NCBI RefSeq assembly: GCF_056712565.1 | Contig: NZ_CM160072.1 | Length of the DNA stretch: 64,000 bases | Strand: one strand, 5' to 3' | Shown here: piece after piece, positions 10,370-60,600 of the stretch | Numbering within the stretch: position 1 is the stretch's first letter | How the letters are laid out: every line of letters starts with the position of its first letter | Translations under genes and position numbers: made by a program | The notes under the pieces: model-generated | What the model was told of the DNA's origin: nothing | The model's database searches: none | Seen by the model: the letters and a program-made list of their open reading frames with translations, nothing else

Positions 10370-11362
10370 TTATTCGCGGAACAGCGCTTCGATATTCAGC
10401 CCCTGCGTTTGCAGGATTTCGCGCAAACGGCGCAGGCCTTCAACCTGAATCTGGCGAACACGTTCACGGGTGAGGCCAATTTCACGACCTACATCTTCCA
10501 GTGTTGCCGCTTCGTACCCCAGCAAACCGAATCGACGTGCCAGTACTTCACGCTGTTTGGCGTTCAGCTCGAACAGCCATTTGACGATGCTCTGCTTCAT
10601 ATCGTCATCTTGCGTGGTATCTTCCGGACCATTCTCTTTTTCATCGGCCAGGATGTCCAGCAACGCTTTTTCGGAATCACCACCCAGCGGGGTGTCTACC
10701 GAGGTAATGCGCTCGTTAAGACGAAGCATACGGCTGACGTCATCAACTGGCTTATCCAGTTGCTCTGCGATCTCTTCCGCACTTGGTTCGTGGTCCAGCT
10801 TATGGGACAACTCACGTGCGGTTCGCAGGTAAACGTTCAGCTCCTTTACGATGTGAATCGGCAAACGAATAGTACGGGTTTGGTTCATAATCGCCCGTTC
10901 GATCGTCTGGCGAATCCACCAGGTTGCGTATGTTGAGAAGCGGAAACCACGTTCCGGGTCAAACTTCTCTACCGCGCGGATCAGCCCCAGGTTGCCCTCT
11001 TCGATCAGGTCCAGCAACGCCAGACCACGATTGCCATAACGGCGGGCAATTTTTACCACCAGACGCAAGTTACTCTCGATCATCCGGCGGCGAGAGGCGA
11101 CATCTCCACGCAGTGCGCGACGCGCAAAATAAACTTCTTCTTCGGCCGTTAACAGTGGTGAATAACCAATCTCACCAAGGTAAAGCTGAGTCGCGTCCAG
11201 CACACGCTGTGTGGCTCCCTGCGATAACAGTTCCTCTTCGGCCAAATCGTTATCACTGGGTTCCTCTTCTACTAAGGCCTTTTCGTCAAAAACCTCAACT
11301 CCGTTCTCATCAAATTCCGCATCTTCATTTAAATCATGAACTTTCAGCGTATTCTGACTCAT
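10370..11362 (-). CDS. rpoS: RNA polymerase sigma factor RpoS (sigma-38)
   Basis: Translation beginning [71 protein letters not shown] is RpoS; 330 aa from the internal ATG (the track ORF extends 12 codons upstream). Confidence 0.95.
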
Positions 11363-21428: not shown

Positions 21429-21552
21429 TGGGTTTGAAATGATTACTCCCTTGCCTGCAGGAAATCAATGCCACCAGAAACAGAGTATAAAAAAGGGTGC
21501 AGGAGACCAAACCATCACAATTCAGTACGCGGGGTTTTACCCCGCGTGGTGG

Positions 21553-21705
21553 CTACTTCTTCGATTCGTAAGCGAGAACTGCCTTAAACTCCATACCACG
21601 TTCTCTGATACTCAACTCACACAACGAGTCGCCTACCATCAACGTGAATCCCAGTACTGTACAACACAGTACGATGATTGCCACAAGGGCATATTTTGTC
21701 AGCAT
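21553..21705 (-). CDS. Hok/Gef-family type I toxin (small membrane peptide), HokE-like
   Basis: Translated by hand from the minus strand: [50 protein letters not shown] (50 aa, ATG to TAG). Hok-family hallmarks: N-terminal TM helix, conserved SLCE motif and C-terminal AYE(S/P)K. GGGAGG Shine-Dalgarno 7 nt upstream. Below the 60-aa cutoff, so absent from the track. Confidence 0.8.
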
Positions 21706-21969
21706 GTCTTGCCTCCCTGCAAAGAAGAGACTAACATCCGAATTGCTTAGGTTCGAACGTAGGCCTCAGGTTGATAGAAATATCGCCTGGGGCTTTTGTC
21801 CATCTGGAACCTCGCGAATGCTTAACGCCAGACAGCCTCAAGCACCCAATGCCATTCTATACCTGTTAATTCTCCCTGCGACGTTCTCGTTTAAATGCCG
21901 GAATGCTGCTCGCAAAATAAAAACGCCCCCATCATTTCTGACAGAGGCGTTTAATTTATCCGGCAATAT

Positions 21970-37765: not shown

Positions 37766-37810
37766 GTGAGGAAGGCCGGGCGGGAAACTGCCCGGCATGA
37801 ACATACCTGA

Positions 37811-37900
37811 ATGGTTATCCCCGCTGACGCGGGGAACTCATATCCGGTTTTTGCTGGTGGGCCGCGCCGTTCGGTTTATCCCCGCTGGTGCGGGGAACTC
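37811..37900 (-). CRISPR. Minimal orphan type I-E CRISPR array: two repeats and one 32-nt spacer
   Basis: Repeat A at 37872..37900 (cggtttatccccgctggtgcggggaactc) is the reverse complement of the E. coli type I-E repeat GAGTTCCCCGCGCCAGCGGGGATAAACCG with one mismatch. Repeat B at 37811..37839 (atggttatccccgctgacgcggggaactc) is a degenerate copy with 4 mismatches, as expected for a terminal repeat. Spacer 37840..37871: atatccggtttttgctggtgggccgcgccgtt. Location between ygcE and queE matches the K-12 CRISPR-II position. Confidence 0.85.
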
Positions 37901-38230
37901 TCTAAACATAACCTATTATTAATTAATTATTTTTTAAGCCAGTCACAATCTACCAACTTTACAGTATCACACAAACAACACATCCATTATGTTAAAGAGC
38001 ACTTAATCCATTGATTAAAAAGATAAATATTTAAAATAACTCTATTCAAACTAAAATCTACCAAACTTTACCGCAATAATTTTCACTCCAGCGAAAAATT
38101 AACGCCACAGAATTTGTAGAGAATGATAATGATTAGTCCAGAATGGGCAAAATGGAGGTTTTTCAGAGGCGACAAAGAATATAAATGAGTAGAAGTCTTT
38201 ACAGATTCCACCCATTTATAACGCTTATAA
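37901..38230 (-). promoter_or_regulatory. AT-rich putative CRISPR leader adjacent to the less-degenerate repeat
   Basis: About 330 bp of very AT-rich non-coding sequence abutting repeat A, on the side where a type I-E leader is expected. Extent not defined from sequence. Confidence 0.5.
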
Positions 38231-38238
38231 ATGTTTAA

Positions 38239-38910
38239 TCAGGCAATATTCAAATATTTATGTGTCTGCATCGACAAACGCCAGTTGCGCGCAATGCAGG
38301 TATCGATACATAAACGCGTAGCATCTTCCTTCTGGCTAATTGGCTGAAGTGCAATGACTCGCGGTTTATCATCGGTCAGCGTCGCCAGCAATTCGTCCAG
38401 TGCTTCAATATCACGTACGCGTCCCACTGGATGCTTGATTTCGTTGGCTCGCTCCAGGGCTTGCGACAATACTTCATAGCCGCCGCGCATGTTCAGCTTT
38501 GGCGATACGGTAACCCAGGTATTCGGTGTGCAGCGTACCTCATGAGTACCACTGGTTTCGATCTGGCAGCTAAAACCGTTCTTTTCGAGCAGGTCAGTCA
38601 GTGGCAGCAAATCATGAATGCAAGGCTCACCACCCGTAATCACCACGTGACGCGCGGTGTATCCCTGACGGCCAATGACAGCCAGCAAATCTTCACTGCT
38701 CGCCGCCCCCCACTTATCACTCTCTTTGGTCTTCGCCAGAATGCTGAAAAGGGAGACTTCCCGATCCTCAAGCTTTTCCCAGGTGTGTTTGGTGTCGCAC
38801 CAGGCACAGCCAACCGGACATCCCTGTAAACGAATAAAAATGGCGGGGACGCCGGTAAAGTAACCCTCACCTTGCAGGGTCTGGAACATCTCGTTAATCG
38901 GGTACTGCAT
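38239..38910 (-). CDS. queE: 7-carboxy-7-deazaguanine synthase (radical SAM)
   Basis: 223-aa ORF MQYPINEMFQTLQGEGYFTGVPAIFIRLQGCPVGCAWCDTKHTW... with radical-SAM Cys motif. Confidence 0.9.
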   Translation of the reverse strand: MQYPINEMFQTLQGEGYFTGVPAIFIRLQGCPVGCAWCDTKHTWEKLEDREVSLFSILAKTKESDKWGAASSEDLLAVIGRQGYTARHVVITGGEPCIHDLLPLTDLLEKNGFSCQIETSGTHEVRCTPNTWVTVSPKLNMRGGYEVLSQALERANEIKHPVGRVRDIEALDELLATLTDDKPRVIALQPISQKEDATRLCIDTCIARNWRLSMQTHKYLNIA

Positions 38911-39082: not shown

Positions 39083-39691
39083 ATGTTTAGAATATTCATC
39101 GCGTTTATATTTATTTTCAATTTATCAGGTTGCGGTTATAACGATATTCAAACCTATGATGAACAGGTTAATGCCTCCTGGTCAGAAGTATTAAATCAAT
39201 ATCAACGTCGCACCGATCTTATTCCTAATCTTGTCGCTAGTATTAAAGGTTACTCCAGCCATGAACAAGAGGTACTAGAAGCCGTAACATTGGCACGTAG
39301 TCAGGCTAATCGCGCCAGTAGCGATCTTCAGAAAACTCCGGGAGATGAACAAAAATTACAAGCCTGGCAACAGGCGCAGGCGCAGGCGCAGGTGACTCGC
39401 ACTCTCGGGCAGTTAACGATTATTAGTGAGCGTTACCCTCAGTTAAAGGCTCAAGAGCTCTATCAAAACTTAATGGTACAGCTCGAAGGAAGTGAAAATA
39501 GAATTGCCGTTGCGCGAGGAAGATATATTAAAGCCATTGAACAATATAATGTCACTATCCGCAAATTCCCCGCTGTATTAACCGCAAAGGTCATGGATTA
39601 CACACCAAAGAAAAATTATTTGCCGGATGATGTCACCGCAGTAAGTAAAGCCCCAACAATAGATTTTAGCCAGAATGCTAATGCTCATTAA
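39083..39691 (+). CDS. lemA: LemA-family protein
   Basis: 202-aa ORF with N-terminal lipoprotein-type signal/anchor (FIFIFNLSGCGYN) and LemA-like helical domain; AT-rich codon usage. Confidence 0.8.
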   Translation: MFRIFIAFIFIFNLSGCGYNDIQTYDEQVNASWSEVLNQYQRRTDLIPNLVASIKGYSSHEQEVLEAVTLARSQANRASSDLQKTPGDEQKLQAWQQAQAQAQVTRTLGQLTIISERYPQLKAQELYQNLMVQLEGSENRIAVARGRYIKAIEQYNVTIRKFPAVLTAKVMDYTPKKNYLPDDVTAVSKAPTIDFSQNANAH

Positions 39692-39704
39692 GCGGGGACG
39701 TTCT

Positions 39705-40598
39705 ATGCGAAATTTTATCTTCCTTATGGCTTTCTTCTGTTCATCTGTGTTTGCTACACAAATTCCAGTACCTGAATCACCCAGGTATGTGAATGACTTA
39801 ACCGGCACATTAACAAACAGCGAAGTAAACACCCTGACCAACCAGATTAAAGCCCTGACGCAAAAAAACCACGCACAGTTGGTCGTGTTAGTGGTTGATA
39901 CAACAGGCGATGAAACCATTGAGCAGTACGCAACGCGGGTATTCGATAGCTGGAAACCGGGTGATAAAGACCGTGATGATGGCGTTCTACTGTTAGTCGC
40001 CTGGCAGGATCATACCGTGCGTATTGAAATCGGTTACGGGCTGGAAGGTATTATTACGGATGCACAGTCCGGGAAAATTATTCGCAACAGTATTATTCCG
40101 GCATTTAAAAAAGGCGACCTGGCTGGTGGTTTACAAAAGGGGATCAACGATATTGAAAGTCGCCTGACGGGGAATAATTCAGCAACGATAACACCGACCG
40201 ATCACCCTTTGTCCTTTAGCGGTTGGTGGGCTTTATTAGTCTGGGCGATAATACTGACGTTTATTTCTGCCAGAGGATATATCAAAACGTTGGGAGTAAT
40301 TTGCTTCGCAGCCATTGTACTGGCCTTTGTTTTACCTATAGCAGGTTTCAGCGGAAGCTGGGGAGTACTCACAACATTACTCTGCTTCGCCACACCGTTT
40401 CTGGCAGTTGCCATCGCTTTTACCCCCTTCGGCAAAAAGGTTCGGGATTCGATGCGTGATGCCAACCAGCCATCACGCCATACAAGAAGCAATTCTTCCT
40501 CCCACTATTCATCATCGTCATCCTCTTCATTCGACAATGACAATTTTAGCGGTGGTGGCGGTTCATCTGGTGGCGGTGGCGCTTCCGGGCGCTGGTAA
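39705..40598 (+). CDS. TPM-domain (DUF477/YgcG-like) membrane protein, paralog 1, with Gly/Ser-rich C-terminal tail
   Basis: Start chosen at MRNFIFLMAFFCSSVFA (signal peptide); alternative ATGs lie at 39675 and 39681. TPM domain (LVVLVVDTTGDETIEQYATRVFDSWKPGDKDRDDGVLLLVAWQDHTVRIEIGYGLEG), 2–3 TM helices, poly-Ser linker, C-terminus GGGGSSGGGGASGRW. Confidence 0.75.
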   Translation: MRNFIFLMAFFCSSVFATQIPVPESPRYVNDLTGTLTNSEVNTLTNQIKALTQKNHAQLVVLVVDTTGDETIEQYATRVFDSWKPGDKDRDDGVLLLVAWQDHTVRIEIGYGLEGIITDAQSGKIIRNSIIPAFKKGDLAGGLQKGINDIESRLTGNNSATITPTDHPLSFSGWWALLVWAIILTFISARGYIKTLGVICFAAIVLAFVLPIAGFSGSWGVLTTLLCFATPFLAVAIAFTPFGKKVRDSMRDANQPSRHTRSNSSSHYSSSSSSSFDNDNFSGGGGSSGGGGASGRW

Positions 40599-40612
40599 CA
40601 AAAGGAATTGAT

Positions 40613-41761
40613 ATGCGTATTTTTCTCTTACTTCTGATGCTATGCGGTTTTCAGGTATTCGCTGAACGATTGCCTTCAGTGACTGACTTAACCGGGACAT
40701 TAACGACAGAAGAACAAAGTGCTTTAAATCAACAATTACAGACTCTCGAGCAGCAAAACCACTTCCAGGTGGCCGTGTTGGTTACGCCGACAACAGGGGG
40801 CAAAAACATTAAACTTGCAGCCTCGCAGAGATACGGGGTATATCACTGGAAACCCGTTGGAGAGAAGCGATATGGCGAAGGTATTTTAATTCTCGTCGTT
40901 TGGCCGGAAGGGCTGGCGTCAATGAAGATTGGACATGGACTGGAACAGATGTTGCCGCCGGAACAAGCTGCGCAAATTGTTCGTTACCATATGCAGCCAG
41001 AATTCGAAAAAAACAATCTCTTTGCTGGATTAACGGGCGGAATTGAAAGCATCGCACAGTTTACCCATATCAAAGCGAACCTTAGCCCTTTGGATGCTTT
41101 AGCCAATCATCTGTTTGCTAATCCGCAACTTTCGCTGCCATGCCTTGCCTGGACAGTGCTGATGATCGTTGCCATCATTGTCCTCTGGCGATTTACCAGC
41201 CGTCCAGGACCTGGCATATGGATGATATCAATGATTACACCTACGGTCTGGTTTTTCTGCTTTCAGGACGATGTCATCATTCGGCGGGTGTCGGTCGTTT
41301 GTTTTAGTTTATTTTTCGCAGCAATCTGCTGGCAGCGTCTCGCAGTAGTTTTTAATATGTGCCGCGTATTTCCTATGATGCTGGCCCCAAAAAATAAAAA
41401 CGCGAAAGTGAAAAAACAAAAGAAGACTCCGCAAGTTCGTGAATCAGGACGAAATTCATTGTTTGTCGTGATGCTGATAATTATTGTGGGATGGTGCCTG
41501 GTGTTCGCCAGTAATAAAGATATTGCATTCATCTCAACAATTATTGGGTTAATTGATCATTTTATCGGCCCAATAACCATTGCTGGCATCGTTCTGCTGA
41601 TCATTGTGGCCAAATTTACTGGCAATCTTAAGCTGGGGTCAGGAGAAAAAAGCAACAGGAAAACGGGGAATCGTAATGCTCATTCTCGCTCTTCGTCGAG
41701 AAATTCTTTCCGCGGTGGTGGCGGTTCTTCAGGAGGCGGCGGTTCATCCGGCCGTTGGTGA
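40613..41761 (+). CDS. TPM-domain membrane protein, paralog 2 (more divergent, extended multi-TM region), same C-terminal tail
   Basis: 382-aa ORF with ATG start and AGGA RBS; signal peptide MRIFLLLLMLCGFQVFA; TPM-like N-terminal domain; long hydrophobic and lysine-rich middle region; C-terminus RGGGGSSGGGGSSGRW. Confidence 0.75.
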   Translation: MRIFLLLLMLCGFQVFAERLPSVTDLTGTLTTEEQSALNQQLQTLEQQNHFQVAVLVTPTTGGKNIKLAASQRYGVYHWKPVGEKRYGEGILILVVWPEGLASMKIGHGLEQMLPPEQAAQIVRYHMQPEFEKNNLFAGLTGGIESIAQFTHIKANLSPLDALANHLFANPQLSLPCLAWTVLMIVAIIVLWRFTSRPGPGIWMISMITPTVWFFCFQDDVIIRRVSVVCFSLFFAAICWQRLAVVFNMCRVFPMMLAPKNKNAKVKKQKKTPQVRESGRNSLFVVMLIIIVGWCLVFASNKDIAFISTIIGLIDHFIGPITIAGIVLLIIVAKFTGNLKLGSGEKSNRKTGNRNAHSRSSSRNSFRGGGGSSGGGGSSGRW

Positions 41762-41766
41762 TCGTA

Positions 41767-42660
41767 ATGCGCTTAATCTTTATTCTATTCACTTTGTGGT
41801 GCCTTCCTGGGCTTGCCCAGCAAATTGCTGTGCCGGAACTGCGCCAACAGGTGACCGATATTACTGGTACGTTAAGCACTTCTGAACAACAATCACTGAC
41901 ACAGCAACTGCAGGATATTACACATAAAACACGGGCGCAGGTCGCTGTATTAGTAGTGCCGTCCACCGGAGACGATTCCATTGAACAATATGCTACAAGG
42001 GTTTTTGATAGCTGGAAACTGGGAGATAAGCAGAGAAACGATGGTATTTTACTTCTGGTTGCCTGGGAGGATCATGCTGTTCGTATTGAGGTTGGCTACG
42101 GGCTGGAAGGGGTGGTTACCGACCTGCAAGCGGCGAAGATTATCAGGGATATATTGATCCCTGCCTTCAAAAGTGATGACCTGATGGGTGGATTAACACT
42201 GGCAAGCGAAAATATCGGCGCGCTTCTGTTGAATGGTGAATTACCGGAAGACAGGGGGGATTATTACAGTATCAATCCCCCTATTCCATTATCGCTTGCT
42301 GTAATTATATTGCTGGCGGTACTTTCATATTTTATTGTTTTTACCGATCCGTCGAATTTACCCTGGATCACTCTCACTGGCGCCATTTACGGGATGGTAT
42401 TCCTCTATGTTGCCGAGCCAGGACCATGGACCAATTTAATCGTTGCCTGCGGTATGTTAACGCCTTTTGCGATCGTACCACTGGTTGTTTTTTGGCTTAT
42501 CGTCAATAAAAAGCTACGCGCCAAATACAAAAAACTCAGTAAAGAAAGAGCTTCAAGAAAAGGTTCTTCTTCATCCTCTTCCGGTGGAGGCTCAAGTGGC
42601 GGCGGATTTAGCGGCGGGGGCGGTTCTTCTGGCGGTGGCGGCGCGTCCGGTCGCTGGTAA
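41767..42660 (+). CDS. ygcG: TPM-domain membrane protein, paralog 3 (probable ygcG ortholog), same C-terminal tail
   Basis: Start at MRLIFILFTLWCLPGLA (the track ORF begins 4 codons earlier at a TTG). TPM domain about 70% identical to paralog 1 by eye (VAVLVVPSTGDDSIEQYATRVFDSWKLGDKQRNDGILLLVAWEDHAVRIEVGYGLEG); C-terminus GGGSSGGGFSGGGGSSGGGGASGRW. Adjacent to eno as ygcG is in K-12 (from memory). Confidence 0.75.
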   Translation: MRLIFILFTLWCLPGLAQQIAVPELRQQVTDITGTLSTSEQQSLTQQLQDITHKTRAQVAVLVVPSTGDDSIEQYATRVFDSWKLGDKQRNDGILLLVAWEDHAVRIEVGYGLEGVVTDLQAAKIIRDILIPAFKSDDLMGGLTLASENIGALLLNGELPEDRGDYYSINPPIPLSLAVIILLAVLSYFIVFTDPSNLPWITLTGAIYGMVFLYVAEPGPWTNLIVACGMLTPFAIVPLVVFWLIVNKKLRAKYKKLSKERASRKGSSSSSSGGGSSGGGFSGGGGSSGGGGASGRW

Positions 42661-45970: not shown

Positions 45971-46762
45971 TTAGAGATCAATTTCCTGCCGTTTTACCTG
46001 TTGCCAGACTTCTTCCATTGTTTCGAGGTCAACACCTGTCATTTCCAGTCCACGCGCGGTAACAATACGCTCCACTTCGCGAAAACGACGCTCGAATTTT
46101 TCGTTCGCTTTTTGCAATGCGATTTCCGCTTTTGTCCCTAAATGACGAGCCAGATTGACCGTGGCAAACAGCAGGTCACCCATTTCCTCCTCCAGTTTAG
46201 CCTGGTCGACAACAGCCTGCCGCGCCTCGTACATCACCTCGTCGATCTCTTCGTAGACTTTATCTACTACCGGACCAAGCGTCGTCCAGTCGAAACCAAC
46301 GTTGGCGCAACGTTTCTGGATTTTTTGCGCACGCATTAAAGCCGGTAAACTACGAGGAATATCGTCCAGCGCCGAATGCTGCGCTTTCTGCGCGCGCTCT
46401 TCGGTTTTGATTTGCTCCCAACGGGCAAGCACTTCACTACTATTTTCGGCAGAACTGTCAGCAAAAACATGCGGATGGCGACGCTCTAATTTATCGCTAA
46501 TAGCAGCGCAAATATCATTAAAGTCAAAGCGCCCTTCTTCCTGAGCCATTTGTGCGTAAAACACCACCTGGAACAGCAGATCGCCCAGTTCACCGCGCAG
46601 ATCGTCAAAATCTTCACGGGCGATGGCGTCCAGCACCTCGTAGGTTTCTTCAAGGGTGTAAGGCGCAATGGTGGCAAATGTCTGCTCTTTATCCCACGGG
46701 CAGCCGTTTTCCGGGTCGCGCAGGCGCTGCATGATGGTGAGCAAACGGTCGATTTGATTCAT
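45971..46762 (-). CDS. mazG: Nucleoside triphosphate pyrophosphohydrolase MazG
   Basis: 263-aa ORF with tandem MazG domains, immediately downstream of mazEF. Confidence 0.9.
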   Translation of the reverse strand: MNQIDRLLTIMQRLRDPENGCPWDKEQTFATIAPYTLEETYEVLDAIAREDFDDLRGELGDLLFQVVFYAQMAQEEGRFDFNDICAAISDKLERRHPHVFADSSAENSSEVLARWEQIKTEERAQKAQHSALDDIPRSLPALMRAQKIQKRCANVGFDWTTLGPVVDKVYEEIDEVMYEARQAVVDQAKLEEEMGDLLFATVNLARHLGTKAEIALQKANEKFERRFREVERIVTARGLEMTGVDLETMEEVWQQVKRQEIDL

Positions 46763-46833
46763 TGAATTGTCCTGAAAATTGCGGGTCCGTCAGGTGTAAA
46801 CCTGTGACCAGAATAGAAGTGAGTTAGTAACAC

Positions 46834-47169
46834 CTACCCAATCAGCACGTTAATTTTGGCTTTAATGAGTTGTAATTCCTCTGGGGCAACTGTTCCTTTC
46901 TTCGTTGCTCCTCTTGCCCGCCAGGCGATACTTTTTACCTGATCAGCTAACGCTACGCCATCACGTTCCTGACCGGATAGAACAACTTCGAACGGATATC
47001 CTTTTGATTGCGTTGTACAAGGAACACACAGACACATACCTGTTTTGTTGTTGTACATGAACGGACTCAGGACAACAGCCGGACGATGTCCGGCTTGCTC
47101 GCTACCTTTTGTCGGGTCAAAATCAACCCAAATCAGATCGCCCGTATCGGGTACGTATCGGCTTACCAT
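46834..47169 (-). CDS. mazF: Type II toxin MazF (mRNA interferase)
   Basis: 111-aa [66 protein letters not shown] sequence (here [14 protein letters not shown]...). Confidence 0.9.
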   Translation of the reverse strand: MVSRYVPDTGDLIWVDFDPTKGSEQAGHRPAVVLSPFMYNNKTGMCLCVPCTTQSKGYPFEVVLSGQERDGVALADQVKSIAWRARGATKKGTVAPEELQLIKAKINVLIG

Positions 47170-47417
47170 TACCAGACTTCCTTATCTTTCGGCTCCCCCC
47201 AGTCGATATTCTCGTGGAGGTTTTCCGGCGTGATGTCGTTGACCAGTTCAGCAAGCGTAAATACGGGCTCTTTACGCACTGGCTCAATAATTAATTTGCC
47301 ATCCACCAGGTCAATCTTCACTTCATCATCAATATTCAGATTGAGCGCCTGCATTAACGTAGCCGGGATCCGCACCGCCGGTGAATTTCCCCAACGCTTT
47401 ACGCTACTGTGGATCAT
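47169..47417 (-). CDS. mazE: Type II antitoxin MazE
   Basis: 82-aa [50 protein letters not shown]...; stop overlaps mazF start. Confidence 0.9.
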
Positions 47418-47494
47418 AACCCTTTCCTCAAACCGCGATCATATGTAGATACAGTATATATCAATCTACATTGTAGATACGAGCAAGTTTCGGC

Positions 47495-49729
47495 CTAACT
47501 CCCGTGCAACCGACGCGCGTCGATAACATCCGGTACCTGGTTGAGTTTACCCAGCACGCGCCCCAGCACTTGCAGGTTGTAAATCTCAATGGTCATGTCG
47601 ATGGTCGCCAGTTGCTGTTTGGTGTCGCTACGGCTGGCAACGCCAAGTACGTTCACCTTCTCGTTGGCGAGAATGGTCGTGATATCACGTAACAACCCAC
47701 TACGATCATTAGCCACCACGCGGACCACCAGCGAATATCCGGCGGAGTAGCTCTCGCCCCATACCGCGTCAACAATGCGTTCTGGCGCATGGGAGCGCAG
47801 TTCCGCCAATTGTTCGCAATCGGCGCGGTGTACTGAAATACCGCGCCCCTGGGTAATGAAGCCGACAATCTCATCTCCAGGAATCGGCTGGCAGCAGCGC
47901 GCGATGTGGTGCATCAGGTTACCGACCCCTTCTACCACCACACGACCGTTATCTTTACTGCGGTTTTGCGGCGTGTAGCTTTTTTGCTGAAGCTGTTTCA
48001 GCGCGGCGGCGTCCTGCTCTTCGGCACTCGGCTTATTAAATTGCGATTGCAGGAAGTTCACCATCTGATTGAGACGGATATCCCCGCCACCAATCGCCGC
48101 CAGCAACTCGTCGACATCATTGAAGTTGTAACGCGGCAGCAGATGTTTTTCTGCTTCTTTCAGGCTGATCCCCAGATGTTCCAGCTCGTCGTCAAGAATT
48201 TGCCGCCCAGCCAGAATGTTTTTGTCACGGTCCTGTTTACGGAACCAGGCGTGAATTTTCGAACGCCCACGGCTGGTTGTGACGTAACCGAGGTTTGGGT
48301 TTAACCAGTCACGGCTGGGGTTCGGCTGTTTCTGGGTGATAATTTCAATCTGGTCGCCCATCTGCAGCTGGTAGGTGAACGGCACAATGCGCCCGCCAAT
48401 TTTTGCCCCGATGCAGCGGTGTCCGACATCACTGTGGATGTGGTAAGCGAAGTCCAGCGGCGTTGATCCCGCAGGCAAATCAACGACATCACCTTTCGGC
48501 GTAAAGACGTACACTCGGTCGTCAAAGACCTGACTACGTACTTCGTCGAGCATTTCGCCGGAATCAGCCATCTCTTCCTGCCACGCAATCAGTTTACGCA
48601 GCCAGGCAATCCGGTCTTCATGTCCCGAACGTGCGCCGCCAGCAGCCGCGCCCTCTTTATATTTCCAGTGCGCAGCAACACCCAACTCTGCATCTTCATG
48701 CATCTGTTTGGTGCGGATTTGGATCTCAACGGTTTTGCCACCCGGCCCCAGAACCACGGTATGAATGGACTGATAACCGTTTGGTTTCGGGTTAGCGACG
48801 TAATCGTCAAACTCATCCGGCAGGTGGCGATAGTGAGTGTGCACTATCCCCAGTGCGGCATAACAATCCTGTAAACGCTCGGCGACAATACGTACCGCAC
48901 GCACATCAAACAGCTCATCGAAGGCGAGGTTCTTTTTCTGCATTTTGCGCCAGATACTGTAGATGTGTTTCGGACGGCCATACACTTCAGCTTTAACGCC
49001 TTCAGCTTTCATCTCAGCGCGCAGATGGCCGACAAACTCTTCGATATAGTGTTCGCGGTCGAGACGGCGTTCATGCAGCAGTTTTGCGATGCGTTTGTAT
49101 TCGGTCGGGTGGAGATAACGGAAGCAGTAATCTTCCAGCTCCCATTTCAGTTGCCCAATCCCAAGACGGTTCGCCAACGGCGCGTAGATATTGGTGCACT
49201 CTTTTGCCGCCAGTACGCGTTCATCTTCCGGCGCATCTTTTACTTCGCGCAGGTGAGCAATACGCTCCGCCAGTTTGATGACCACGCAGCGAAAATCATC
49301 GACCATCGCCAATAACATCCGGCGAACGTTATCGACCTGTTCGGAGGAAACAGAATCAGTGTGCGTCGCTTTCAGCTGGCGGATCGCCGCCATATCACGC
49401 ACGCCGTGAATAAGGTTAACGACCGACTTACCGACGCTCTCACGCAGCACATCTTCGCTGACTACGTTGGCATCAGCCAGAGGGAACAGCAGCGCCGCCC
49501 GCAGCGTGTCAATGTCCATACTTAATGTCGAGAGGATCTCCACCATCTCAACACCACGCCACAATAACAGACTGGCATCCGGATGCCCCTGCGTCTGTTG
49601 CAGACAATACGCCCAGGTTTCGGCTAAGCACTCACACGACTTCTGGCTGGTAATACCCAGACTTGCGATCCATTTTTCCGGATCAAATTCACCAGCCTTA
49701 TTGATATGTGCACTTCTTACCGCAACCAT
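47495..49729 (-). CDS. relA: GTP pyrophosphokinase ((p)ppGpp synthetase I)
   Basis: 744-aa ORF MVAVRSAHINKAGEFDPEKWIASLGITSQKSCECLAETWAYCLQ..., canonical RelA. Confidence 0.95.
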   Translation of the reverse strand: MVAVRSAHINKAGEFDPEKWIASLGITSQKSCECLAETWAYCLQQTQGHPDASLLLWRGVEMVEILSTLSMDIDTLRAALLFPLADANVVSEDVLRESVGKSVVNLIHGVRDMAAIRQLKATHTDSVSSEQVDNVRRMLLAMVDDFRCVVIKLAERIAHLREVKDAPEDERVLAAKECTNIYAPLANRLGIGQLKWELEDYCFRYLHPTEYKRIAKLLHERRLDREHYIEEFVGHLRAEMKAEGVKAEVYGRPKHIYSIWRKMQKKNLAFDELFDVRAVRIVAERLQDCYAALGIVHTHYRHLPDEFDDYVANPKPNGYQSIHTVVLGPGGKTVEIQIRTKQMHEDAELGVAAHWKYKEGAAAGGARSGHEDRIAWLRKLIAWQEEMADSGEMLDEVRSQVFDDRVYVFTPKGDVVDLPAGSTPLDFAYHIHSDVGHRCIGAKIGGRIVPFTYQLQMGDQIEIITQKQPNPSRDWLNPNLGYVTTSRGRSKIHAWFRKQDRDKNILAGRQILDDELEHLGISLKEAEKHLLPRYNFNDVDELLAAIGGGDIRLNQMVNFLQSQFNKPSAEEQDAAALKQLQQKSYTPQNRSKDNGRVVVEGVGNLMHHIARCCQPIPGDEIVGFITQGRGISVHRADCEQLAELRSHAPERIVDAVWGESYSAGYSLVVRVVANDRSGLLRDITTILANEKVNVLGVASRSDTKQQLATIDMTIEIYNLQVLGRVLGKLNQVPDVIDARRLHGS

Positions 49730-60231: not shown

Positions 60232-60600
60232 AATAAAAAAAGGGAGCACTGTATTCACAGTGCTCCCGGTTCGTTTCGCAGCATTCCGGCTACTTTTGTT
60301 GCTCCCTGCTCATCCTTGACAACTTTTCCTCTGGCCTTGCGGCCAATCGTTCATCCTGAACTATTGCTTCCTGCTCACACCACCCCGATGTGATACTTCA
60401 TCCTGAAGTGTTCCTGGCCTTCCTGACCCACCGAATCATCCTGACCGGTTCTCATTCTCCATCCTGGAGGTGTCCTTTAACGCGTCCTGCGTCATCCTCT
60501 TCGCTTCATCCAGAAGCCTTTCCCTGAAACACCATCCTGGTGTGTCCTTCAGAAGTGTCATCATCCTGATGTTCACTTCGTTGTCTGACTCCCTGTCGAC
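60232..60600 (-). ncRNA. csrB: CsrB small RNA (CsrA-sequestering)
   Basis: 369-nt span on the minus strand carrying about 20 CAGGA(U/A)G / AGGA motifs (seen as catcctg repeats on the + strand), 5' end GTCGACAGGGAGTCAGAC, and a 3' terminator hairpin (gggagcactgtattcacagtgctccc) followed by a U-tract. The length equals that of K-12 csrB. Confidence 0.88.

Follow-up and report, generated by a model that had tools for sequence, protein, structure and literature searches.

Intact mazEF and hok/sok toxin–antitoxin loci in a chromosomal segment closely related to the Escherichia coli type strain

We conclude with high confidence that the 64,000-nucleotide stretch analysed here (NCBI RefSeq assembly GCF_056712565.1, contig NZ_CM160072.1; hereafter the window) is chromosomal DNA from a phylogroup B2 E. 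coli close to the type strain, and that it carries two ordinary, separately inherited toxin–antitoxin loci. The window shares 99.98–99.99% identity with the chromosome of E. coli ATCC 11775 (= DSM 30083), a strain assigned to phylogroup B2 (PMC4334874). Its gene order runs mutS ... rpoS-nlpD-pcm ... cysCND-iap-[hok]-cysHIJ ... ygcE-queE ... eno-pyrG-mazG-mazF-mazE-relA-rlmD-barA ... csrB ... (Table 1). An earlier sequence-only reading had proposed that a type II system (mazEF) and a type I system (hok) are both found in the window, and both loci are indeed present and intact. It had further proposed that hok replaced a CRISPR-Cas locus, a claim that our results contradict. Both toxin–antitoxin loci, and their combination, are already known and annotated. 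Our analysis establishes that the genes are intact, that their products match characterised proteins and that regulatory sequences are conserved, and it documents the genomic context of the loci and their distribution across genomes; the biochemical activities of both loci we take from the literature. All sequence elements required by the mechanistic models for the two loci are present and conserved, with the exception of the mok frame.

Several other features of the window were observed in passing. In ygbN (ORF 6867..8051, plus strand), a one-base deletion at position 8031 relative to the ATCC 11775 assembly (ATC-GAT vs ATCCGAT) leaves a GntP-family transporter ORF of 394 aa, compared with 454 aa in the reference; either a genuine frameshift or an error in sequencing could account for this. 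The rpoS gene ends in a normal TAA stop (10370–10372, minus strand) after ...ALFRE, giving full-length RpoS in the window, whereas the ATCC 11775 assembly (CP033092.2) has GAA at the stop position and its rpoS is flagged incomplete by PGAP. Where K-12 carries yqcG and ygcG, the queE–eno interval of the window (39083–42660) contains three TPM-domain genes and one LemA-family gene, and positions 40000–42000 align neither to K-12 nor to the B2 strain AVS0754. A 6-bp indel of a CAGGCG repeat unit distinguishes the window from ATCC 11775 at 39371–39376. The small RNA CsrB (60232–60591, minus strand) gives a full-length Rfam match (381.7 bits) and lies, as usual, between yqcC and syd.

Table 1. Positions of the features discussed, in window coordinates
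Feature	Position	Strand	Basis or description
mazG, nucleoside triphosphate pyrophosphohydrolase, 263 aa, third gene of the cluster	45971..46762	-	NCBIfam NF007113, 370 bits (cut-off 208), and TIGR00444; annotated in ATCC 11775
mazF, type II toxin, endoribonuclease (predicted activity)	46834..47169	-	Uninterrupted ORF, 111 aa, M9T allele
mazE, type II antitoxin	47169..47417	-	Uninterrupted ORF, 82 aa
relA–mazE intergenic region, 77 bp, with mazEF promoter and presumed operator palindromes	47418..47494	-	Inverted repeats 47443-47450 / 47464-47471 and adjacent ATCTACATTGTAGAT
relA, GTP diphosphokinase, 744 aa, upstream gene	47495..49729	-	NCBIfam NF008124, 1678 bits; protein accession same as K-12
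Position equivalent to K-12 antisense RNA aMEF (ameF, b4844)	47129..47528	+	Coordinates transferred from MG1655 RefSeq annotation
48-bp junction filler from the iap side to the hok locus, specific to the cas-less arrangement	21440..21487	.	K-12 homology ends at 21439; cas-positive homology starts at 21488
Predicted full-length hok mRNA (5′ leader, hok ORF, 3′ fold-back element, then U-tract)	21488..21847	-	Rfam and folding
hok-family toxin ORF, 50 aa (HokG of O157:H7, 'hokX' of E. coli B)	21553..21705	-	Pfam PF01848
12-codon upstream ORF, TGA stop overlapping hok ATG	21699..21737	-	Direct sequence reading; candidate mok-like coupling frame
Candidate Sok promoter, TTGCCT-17 nt-TAACAT	21709..21737	+	Direct sequence reading
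Sok antisense RNA, homologue of K-12 sokX	21745..21803	+	Alignment to annotated MG1655 sokX, 4 substitutions

The mazEF operon

The genes relA, mazE, mazF and mazG follow one another in the K-12 order, which bears out the proposal of a canonical arrangement downstream of relA. MazE is identical at 82 of 82 residues to the protein in PDB entries 1MVF and 1UB4 (E 4.8e-52), and MazF matches PDB 3NFC/5CK9 at 110 of 111 positions over residues 1–111 (E 1.5e-72), the single change being M9T. With only this residue altered, the catalytic and RNA-binding residues of MazF, which we take to be those given in the literature, are unchanged. The NCBIfam equivalog models for MazF, MazE, MazG and RelA are all covered end to end with scores well over their curated cut-offs (MazF, NF007386, 226.4 bits, cut-off 120; MazE, NF007312, 196 bits, cut-off 113), and the Pfam matches agree (PF02452, PemK_toxin, 85 bits, cut-off 23.1; PF04014, MazE_antitoxin, 52.9 bits, cut-off 24.7). 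The sequence-only reading had called mazEF intact and named premature stops or frameshifts as what would overturn this; alignment to the K-12 proteins revealed neither in mazE or mazF. The M9T allele is common in nature: an identical MazF(T9) sequence (UniProt E2QQM8) occurs on at least 1000 public contigs under the name MazF and is annotated as mazF (WP_000254750.1) in ATCC 11775.

At the DNA level, the 1.1-kb mazEF region is 98–99% identical to K-12. One synonymous change separates the two mazE genes. Of the six changes in mazF, five are synonymous and the sixth, ATG to ACG, is the non-synonymous M9T; this mostly synonymous pattern fits purifying selection. The window has the architecture of a type II operon, with mazE directly upstream of mazF, its stop codon overlapping the mazF ATG by 1 nt at 47169, and a predicted operator palindrome upstream. 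Compared with K-12, the palindrome block at 47443–47478, which is presumably the MazE/MazF operator, is unchanged, and the rest of the 77-bp relA–mazE spacer carries two substitutions; the mazF–mazG spacer has a 1-bp insertion and two substitutions. A simple promoter scan missed both the known mazEF promoter and the presumed sok promoter, which we treat as a limit of such a scan. In the MG1655 RefSeq annotation, a 400-nt antisense RNA, aMEF, runs opposite the whole of mazE and reaches into the 5′ end of mazF on one side and the 3′ end of relA on the other. The equivalent sequence in the window is approximately 99% identical to K-12, and an aMEF-like transcript may therefore be made here too.

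The mechanisms of MazF, MazE and hok/Sok are well established. On the model for mazEF, MazF dimers would cleave single-stranded RNA at ACA, and the labile MazE would bind MazF through its acidic C-terminal tail and block the toxin. The MazE–MazF complex would in addition repress the promoter through the palindromic operator upstream of mazE. MazE would be turned over by cellular proteases, such that free MazF would appear whenever degradation ran faster than synthesis. The position of mazE upstream of mazF would go with translational linkage of the two genes, and the pair would also be transcribed by read-through from relA.

The hok/sok locus and the absence of CRISPR-Cas between iap and cysH

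The second toxin is a small Hok-family peptide encoded beside cysH. Its ORF covers the full 42-position Pfam model PF01848 (HOK_GEF) at 39.1 bits (cut-off 22), and its exact sequence is that of UniProt HOKG_ECO57 and of WP_000956458.1 (Hok/Gef family protein), found on at least 1000 contigs. Two NCBIfam Hok models scored below their cut-offs (NF007290, 53 vs 89 bits; NF007279, 39.5 vs 73 bits). We considered HokA as the identity of this protein and rejected it on the sub-threshold scores of the NCBIfam HokA equivalog and Hok subfamily models; the same scores indicate that the window Hok is a paralogue of its own (HokG/HokX) in the Pfam family.

The regulatory RNAs of the locus can be traced in some detail. 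The Rfam 'sok' model RF01794, which has the orientation of the hok mRNA leader, matches at 21690–21847 on the minus strand with 112 bits (gathering cut-off 59). Minimum-energy and centroid folds of 21488–21847 pair the 5′ GGGUGC..GAGGCU with the 3′ GGUCUCCUGCACCC (z = -3.95, in silico), and this predicted 5′–3′ pairing is the fold-back (tac/fbi) arrangement known from hok mRNAs. The ORF list of the window contains no long mok frame overlapping the hok start, only a 12-codon ORF that ends on the hok start codon. This short ORF is a candidate coupling frame; we give a low probability to hokG/hokX translation being coupled through it instead of through a long mok frame. On the opposite strand, Sok is predicted to fold into a single-stranded 5′ tail, a terminator hairpin and a U-tract (z = -3.1), and 7 nt separate the end of the -10 element of its candidate promoter from the aligned 5′ end of sokX. 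According to the hok/Sok model, the stable, folded hok mRNA would be held inert by its 5′–3′ pairing, and trimming of its 3′ end would lead to refolding and translation unless Sok, a short cis-antisense RNA, paired with the leader and blocked translation. The 50-aa Hok peptide, once made, would damage the inner membrane.

The gap between iap and cysH measures 541 bp (iap stop, 21428; cysH stop, 21970) and contains the hok locus only. There is neither a cas gene nor a CRISPR repeat (up to three mismatches) between iap and cysH, the sole repeat match in the window lying at 37872, and no CRISPR remnant was found from iap to hok. The type I-E CRISPR-Cas system that K-12 carries at this site (CRISPR-I) is thus absent from the window. 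When K-12 is the only comparator, the hok ORF occupies the place of the K-12 segment from cas3 to the CRISPR array, and the iap–cysH site of K-12 is devoid of a hok ORF, an arrangement that invites the view that insertion of hok displaced the CRISPR-Cas locus. However, the identical Hok protein, in DNA that is 95–98% identical, lies between cas3 and cysH in cas-positive genomes. In strain LF4-1, which is cas-positive, hok (WP_000956458.1) lies 63 bp past the end of cas3, and in O157:H7 strain Z1834 the genes run casA-cas3-hok-cysH, Hok having the accession found in the window. Since hok and cas3 occur together at this site in other genomes, the proposed hok-for-cas replacement is refuted, and we give it almost no credence. 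We also considered whether the hok genes beside cas3 might be unrelated paralogues, an idea contradicted by the identical protein accessions and the level of DNA identity.

The wider comparison points the same way. In cas-positive genomes, homology to the window begins at 21488, where the hok transcript is predicted to have its 3′ end, and among the 5,426 complete E. coli genomes searched, the segment from 21488 onward (the hok locus and cysH) is found in most of those that have something between iap and hok. In a spread sample, approximately three quarters of such genomes keep the hok ORF. In K-12, by comparison, the stretch homologous to the window begins exactly at the hok ATG (21705/21703), so that the leader and sokX are kept and the toxin ORF is absent. 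It is this loss of the hok coding part from K-12 that makes a comparison with K-12 alone resemble a swap. A replacement would also be contrary to published surveys: Almendros et al. described nine iap–cysH arrangements, with hok-sok in all strains except those of the cas-E2 (K-12) type (PMC3903273), and a 2025 survey of urinary isolates found hok and sokX beside cysH in 90% of strains and sokX alone in the rest, with isolates lacking CRISPR belonging mostly to B2 (PMC12736100). Whether cas genes are present or not, hok is a resident locus beside cysH, and the missing CRISPR-Cas system at iap–cysH is a separate trait, typical of the B2 lineage. The earlier description of a Hok-family toxin at a former CRISPR-Cas site is accordingly right in that a Hok ORF lies in a cas-less iap–cysH gap, and needs amending in that hok is there only as a long-standing neighbour of that site.

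Elsewhere in the window, at CRISPR-II (ygcE–queE), lies an orphan mini-array (37815–37900, minus strand). It comprises a pair of type I-E repeats together with a lone 32-nt spacer and a leader rich in AT; one repeat has a single mismatch to the consensus and the other is degenerate, and the window contains no I-E cas genes. A search of phage and plasmid collections with the lone spacer returned only partial matches at chance level. In some B2 genomes that lack mazEF, the ygcE–queE gap is occupied by a sucrose-utilisation cluster (AVS0754 L010 4646–11124, corresponding approximately to window 37770–38240). In AVS0754 this cluster encodes a kinase, a porin, a PTS IIBC component, a hydrolase and a LacI-type regulator, and the window has the CRISPR-II mini-array in its place. 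The same sucrose/CRISPR-II polymorphism has been described (PMC12736100).

Distribution and history of mazEF

We counted the two traits among 5,426 complete E. coli genomes. A 90-nt probe (21445–21534) for the cas-less iap–hok junction matched 1,120 genomes (~21%), and mazEF was present in 4,415 (~81%) at 4,421 places. When the junction probe was concatenated with mazEF into one query (E <= 1e-20; the two loci are 25.3 kb apart in the window), either trait was found in 5,109 genomes at 5,541 places. From the union and place counts it follows that 432 genomes (8%) carry both, as the window does, in agreement with the 431 genomes in which the junction shows at least 99% identity to that of the window. 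The remaining classes, similarly derived, are 688 genomes with the junction and no mazEF, about 3,989 with mazEF and no junction, and 317 with neither. Hence neither mazEF nor I-E CRISPR-Cas is fixed in E. coli. The frequency of mazEF is 39% among genomes with the cas-less junction vs about 93% among the others. We think it highly improbable that this depletion reflects an interplay between defence and stress modules and not shared B2 ancestry.

Where mazEF is missing, the site between relA and mazG has a defined structure. In one allele, shared by 1,007 of the 5,426 genomes, 58 bp that include a hairpin, GCTGGATA...TATCCAGC, lie between mazG and relA (AVS0754 L002 1600–1658; approximately window 46800–47490). 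This empty site is neither a ragged deletion nor a simple deletion scar. Examples include ST131 EC958, Nissle 1917, Ecol_AZ153 and AVS0754, and mazEF has likewise been reported absent from UTI89 and CFT073 (PMC7167474, PMC7232551). The filler also occurs at 94% identity in two representatives of other Escherichia GTDB species, E69 and MOD1-EC7003, whose relA and mazG are approximately 96% identical to those of the window, indicating that the empty state is old. These were the only two Escherichia genomes with the hairpin in a scan of species representatives that relied on exact matching, a method for which more distant outgroups are out of reach. The mazEF module may be an ancient insertion into relA–mazG, which is also how Fraikin et al. 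regard it (PMC7167474).

An old empty site raises the question of whether mazEF in the window was retained or regained, and several observations would suit its re-acquisition by homologous recombination into a B2 ancestor with an empty relA–mazG site. Most genomes with the cas-less junction (688/1120, 61%) have the empty site, the filler persists in the two other Escherichia species representatives, and the view of mazEF as an insertion is already published. Against this, the flanks are B2-like right up to mazEF, with 2–5 differences per 500–800 aligned bp from the mazEF-less B2 strain AVS0754, compared with 20–24 per kb from K-12. Within mazEF, divergence from K-12 is 1.2%, similar to that of the surrounding core genes, and divergence from the closest alleles in junction-less genomes is 0.7–1%. 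SNP densities measured against the mazEF-less B2 genome and K-12 reveal no imported recombination tract around mazEF, which fits vertical retention. We therefore regard re-acquisition as doubtful and vertical retention as plausible. It could also be argued that both loci are intact in sequence and yet functionally dead, neutral remnants, with MazF inactivated by M9T or hok silent. MazF does carry M9T, the only mok-like ORF is short, and chromosomal hok loci are often inactive; Pedersen and Gerdes reportedly found in 1999 that many of them are inactive in laboratory strains. However, substitutions in mazEF are mostly synonymous, MazE is 100% conserved, the MazF(T9) allele and the Hok sequence are each found on at least 1000 contigs, and the regulatory elements of both loci are conserved. 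We consider such decay improbable and favour the reading of two ordinary, intact loci with separate histories.

The outcome of this study is that the annotation of both loci is correct and that one misreading is mended, with hok now seen as a long-standing neighbour of cysH and no substitute for CRISPR-Cas. K-12 is atypical at the hok site, and comparisons made with K-12 only can mislead.

Comparison with known systems

Among characterised systems, the type II locus most resembles K-12 mazEF (chpA), with which it shares genes, order, strand, the 1-nt overlap, the promoter palindrome and the downstream mazG. It differs from K-12 in the M9T residue of MazF, in six synonymous changes and in the relA–mazE and mazF–mazG spacers. 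The type I locus corresponds to hokX/sokX, known from E. coli B and as a remnant in K-12, and to hokG of O157:H7; it lies beside cysH and its protein is identical to HOKG_ECO57, whereas the K-12 remnant is without the hok coding sequence. In O157:H7 and most other strains, cas3 lies immediately past the 3′ end of hok, whereas in the window iap follows after the 48-bp filler.

The locus also shares several traits with hok/sok (parB) of plasmid R1, namely a small Hok/Gef peptide, a structured leader recognised by Rfam, a predicted 5′–3′ fold-back and an antisense Sok, encoded in cis, that has a 5′ tail and a hairpin. Unlike the R1 system, it is chromosomal, such that a role in plasmid maintenance does not apply, and it has the 12-codon ORF ending on the hok ATG in place of a long mok.

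The combination of loci has close precedents among B2 strains. The AIEC strain NRG857c carries a classic mazEF near relA, with a MazF 99.1% identical to that of K-12, together with a hokX homologue (PMC7232551), and the cas-less iap–cysH arrangement with hok-sok has already been described (PMC3903273). We find no substantive difference between the window and AIEC NRG857c/LF82 or other B2 genomes with a cas-less CRISPR-I site. Many other B2 strains, including UTI89, CFT073, Nissle 1917 and ST131 EC958, differ from the window in lacking mazEF (PMC7167474, PMC7232551, this analysis).
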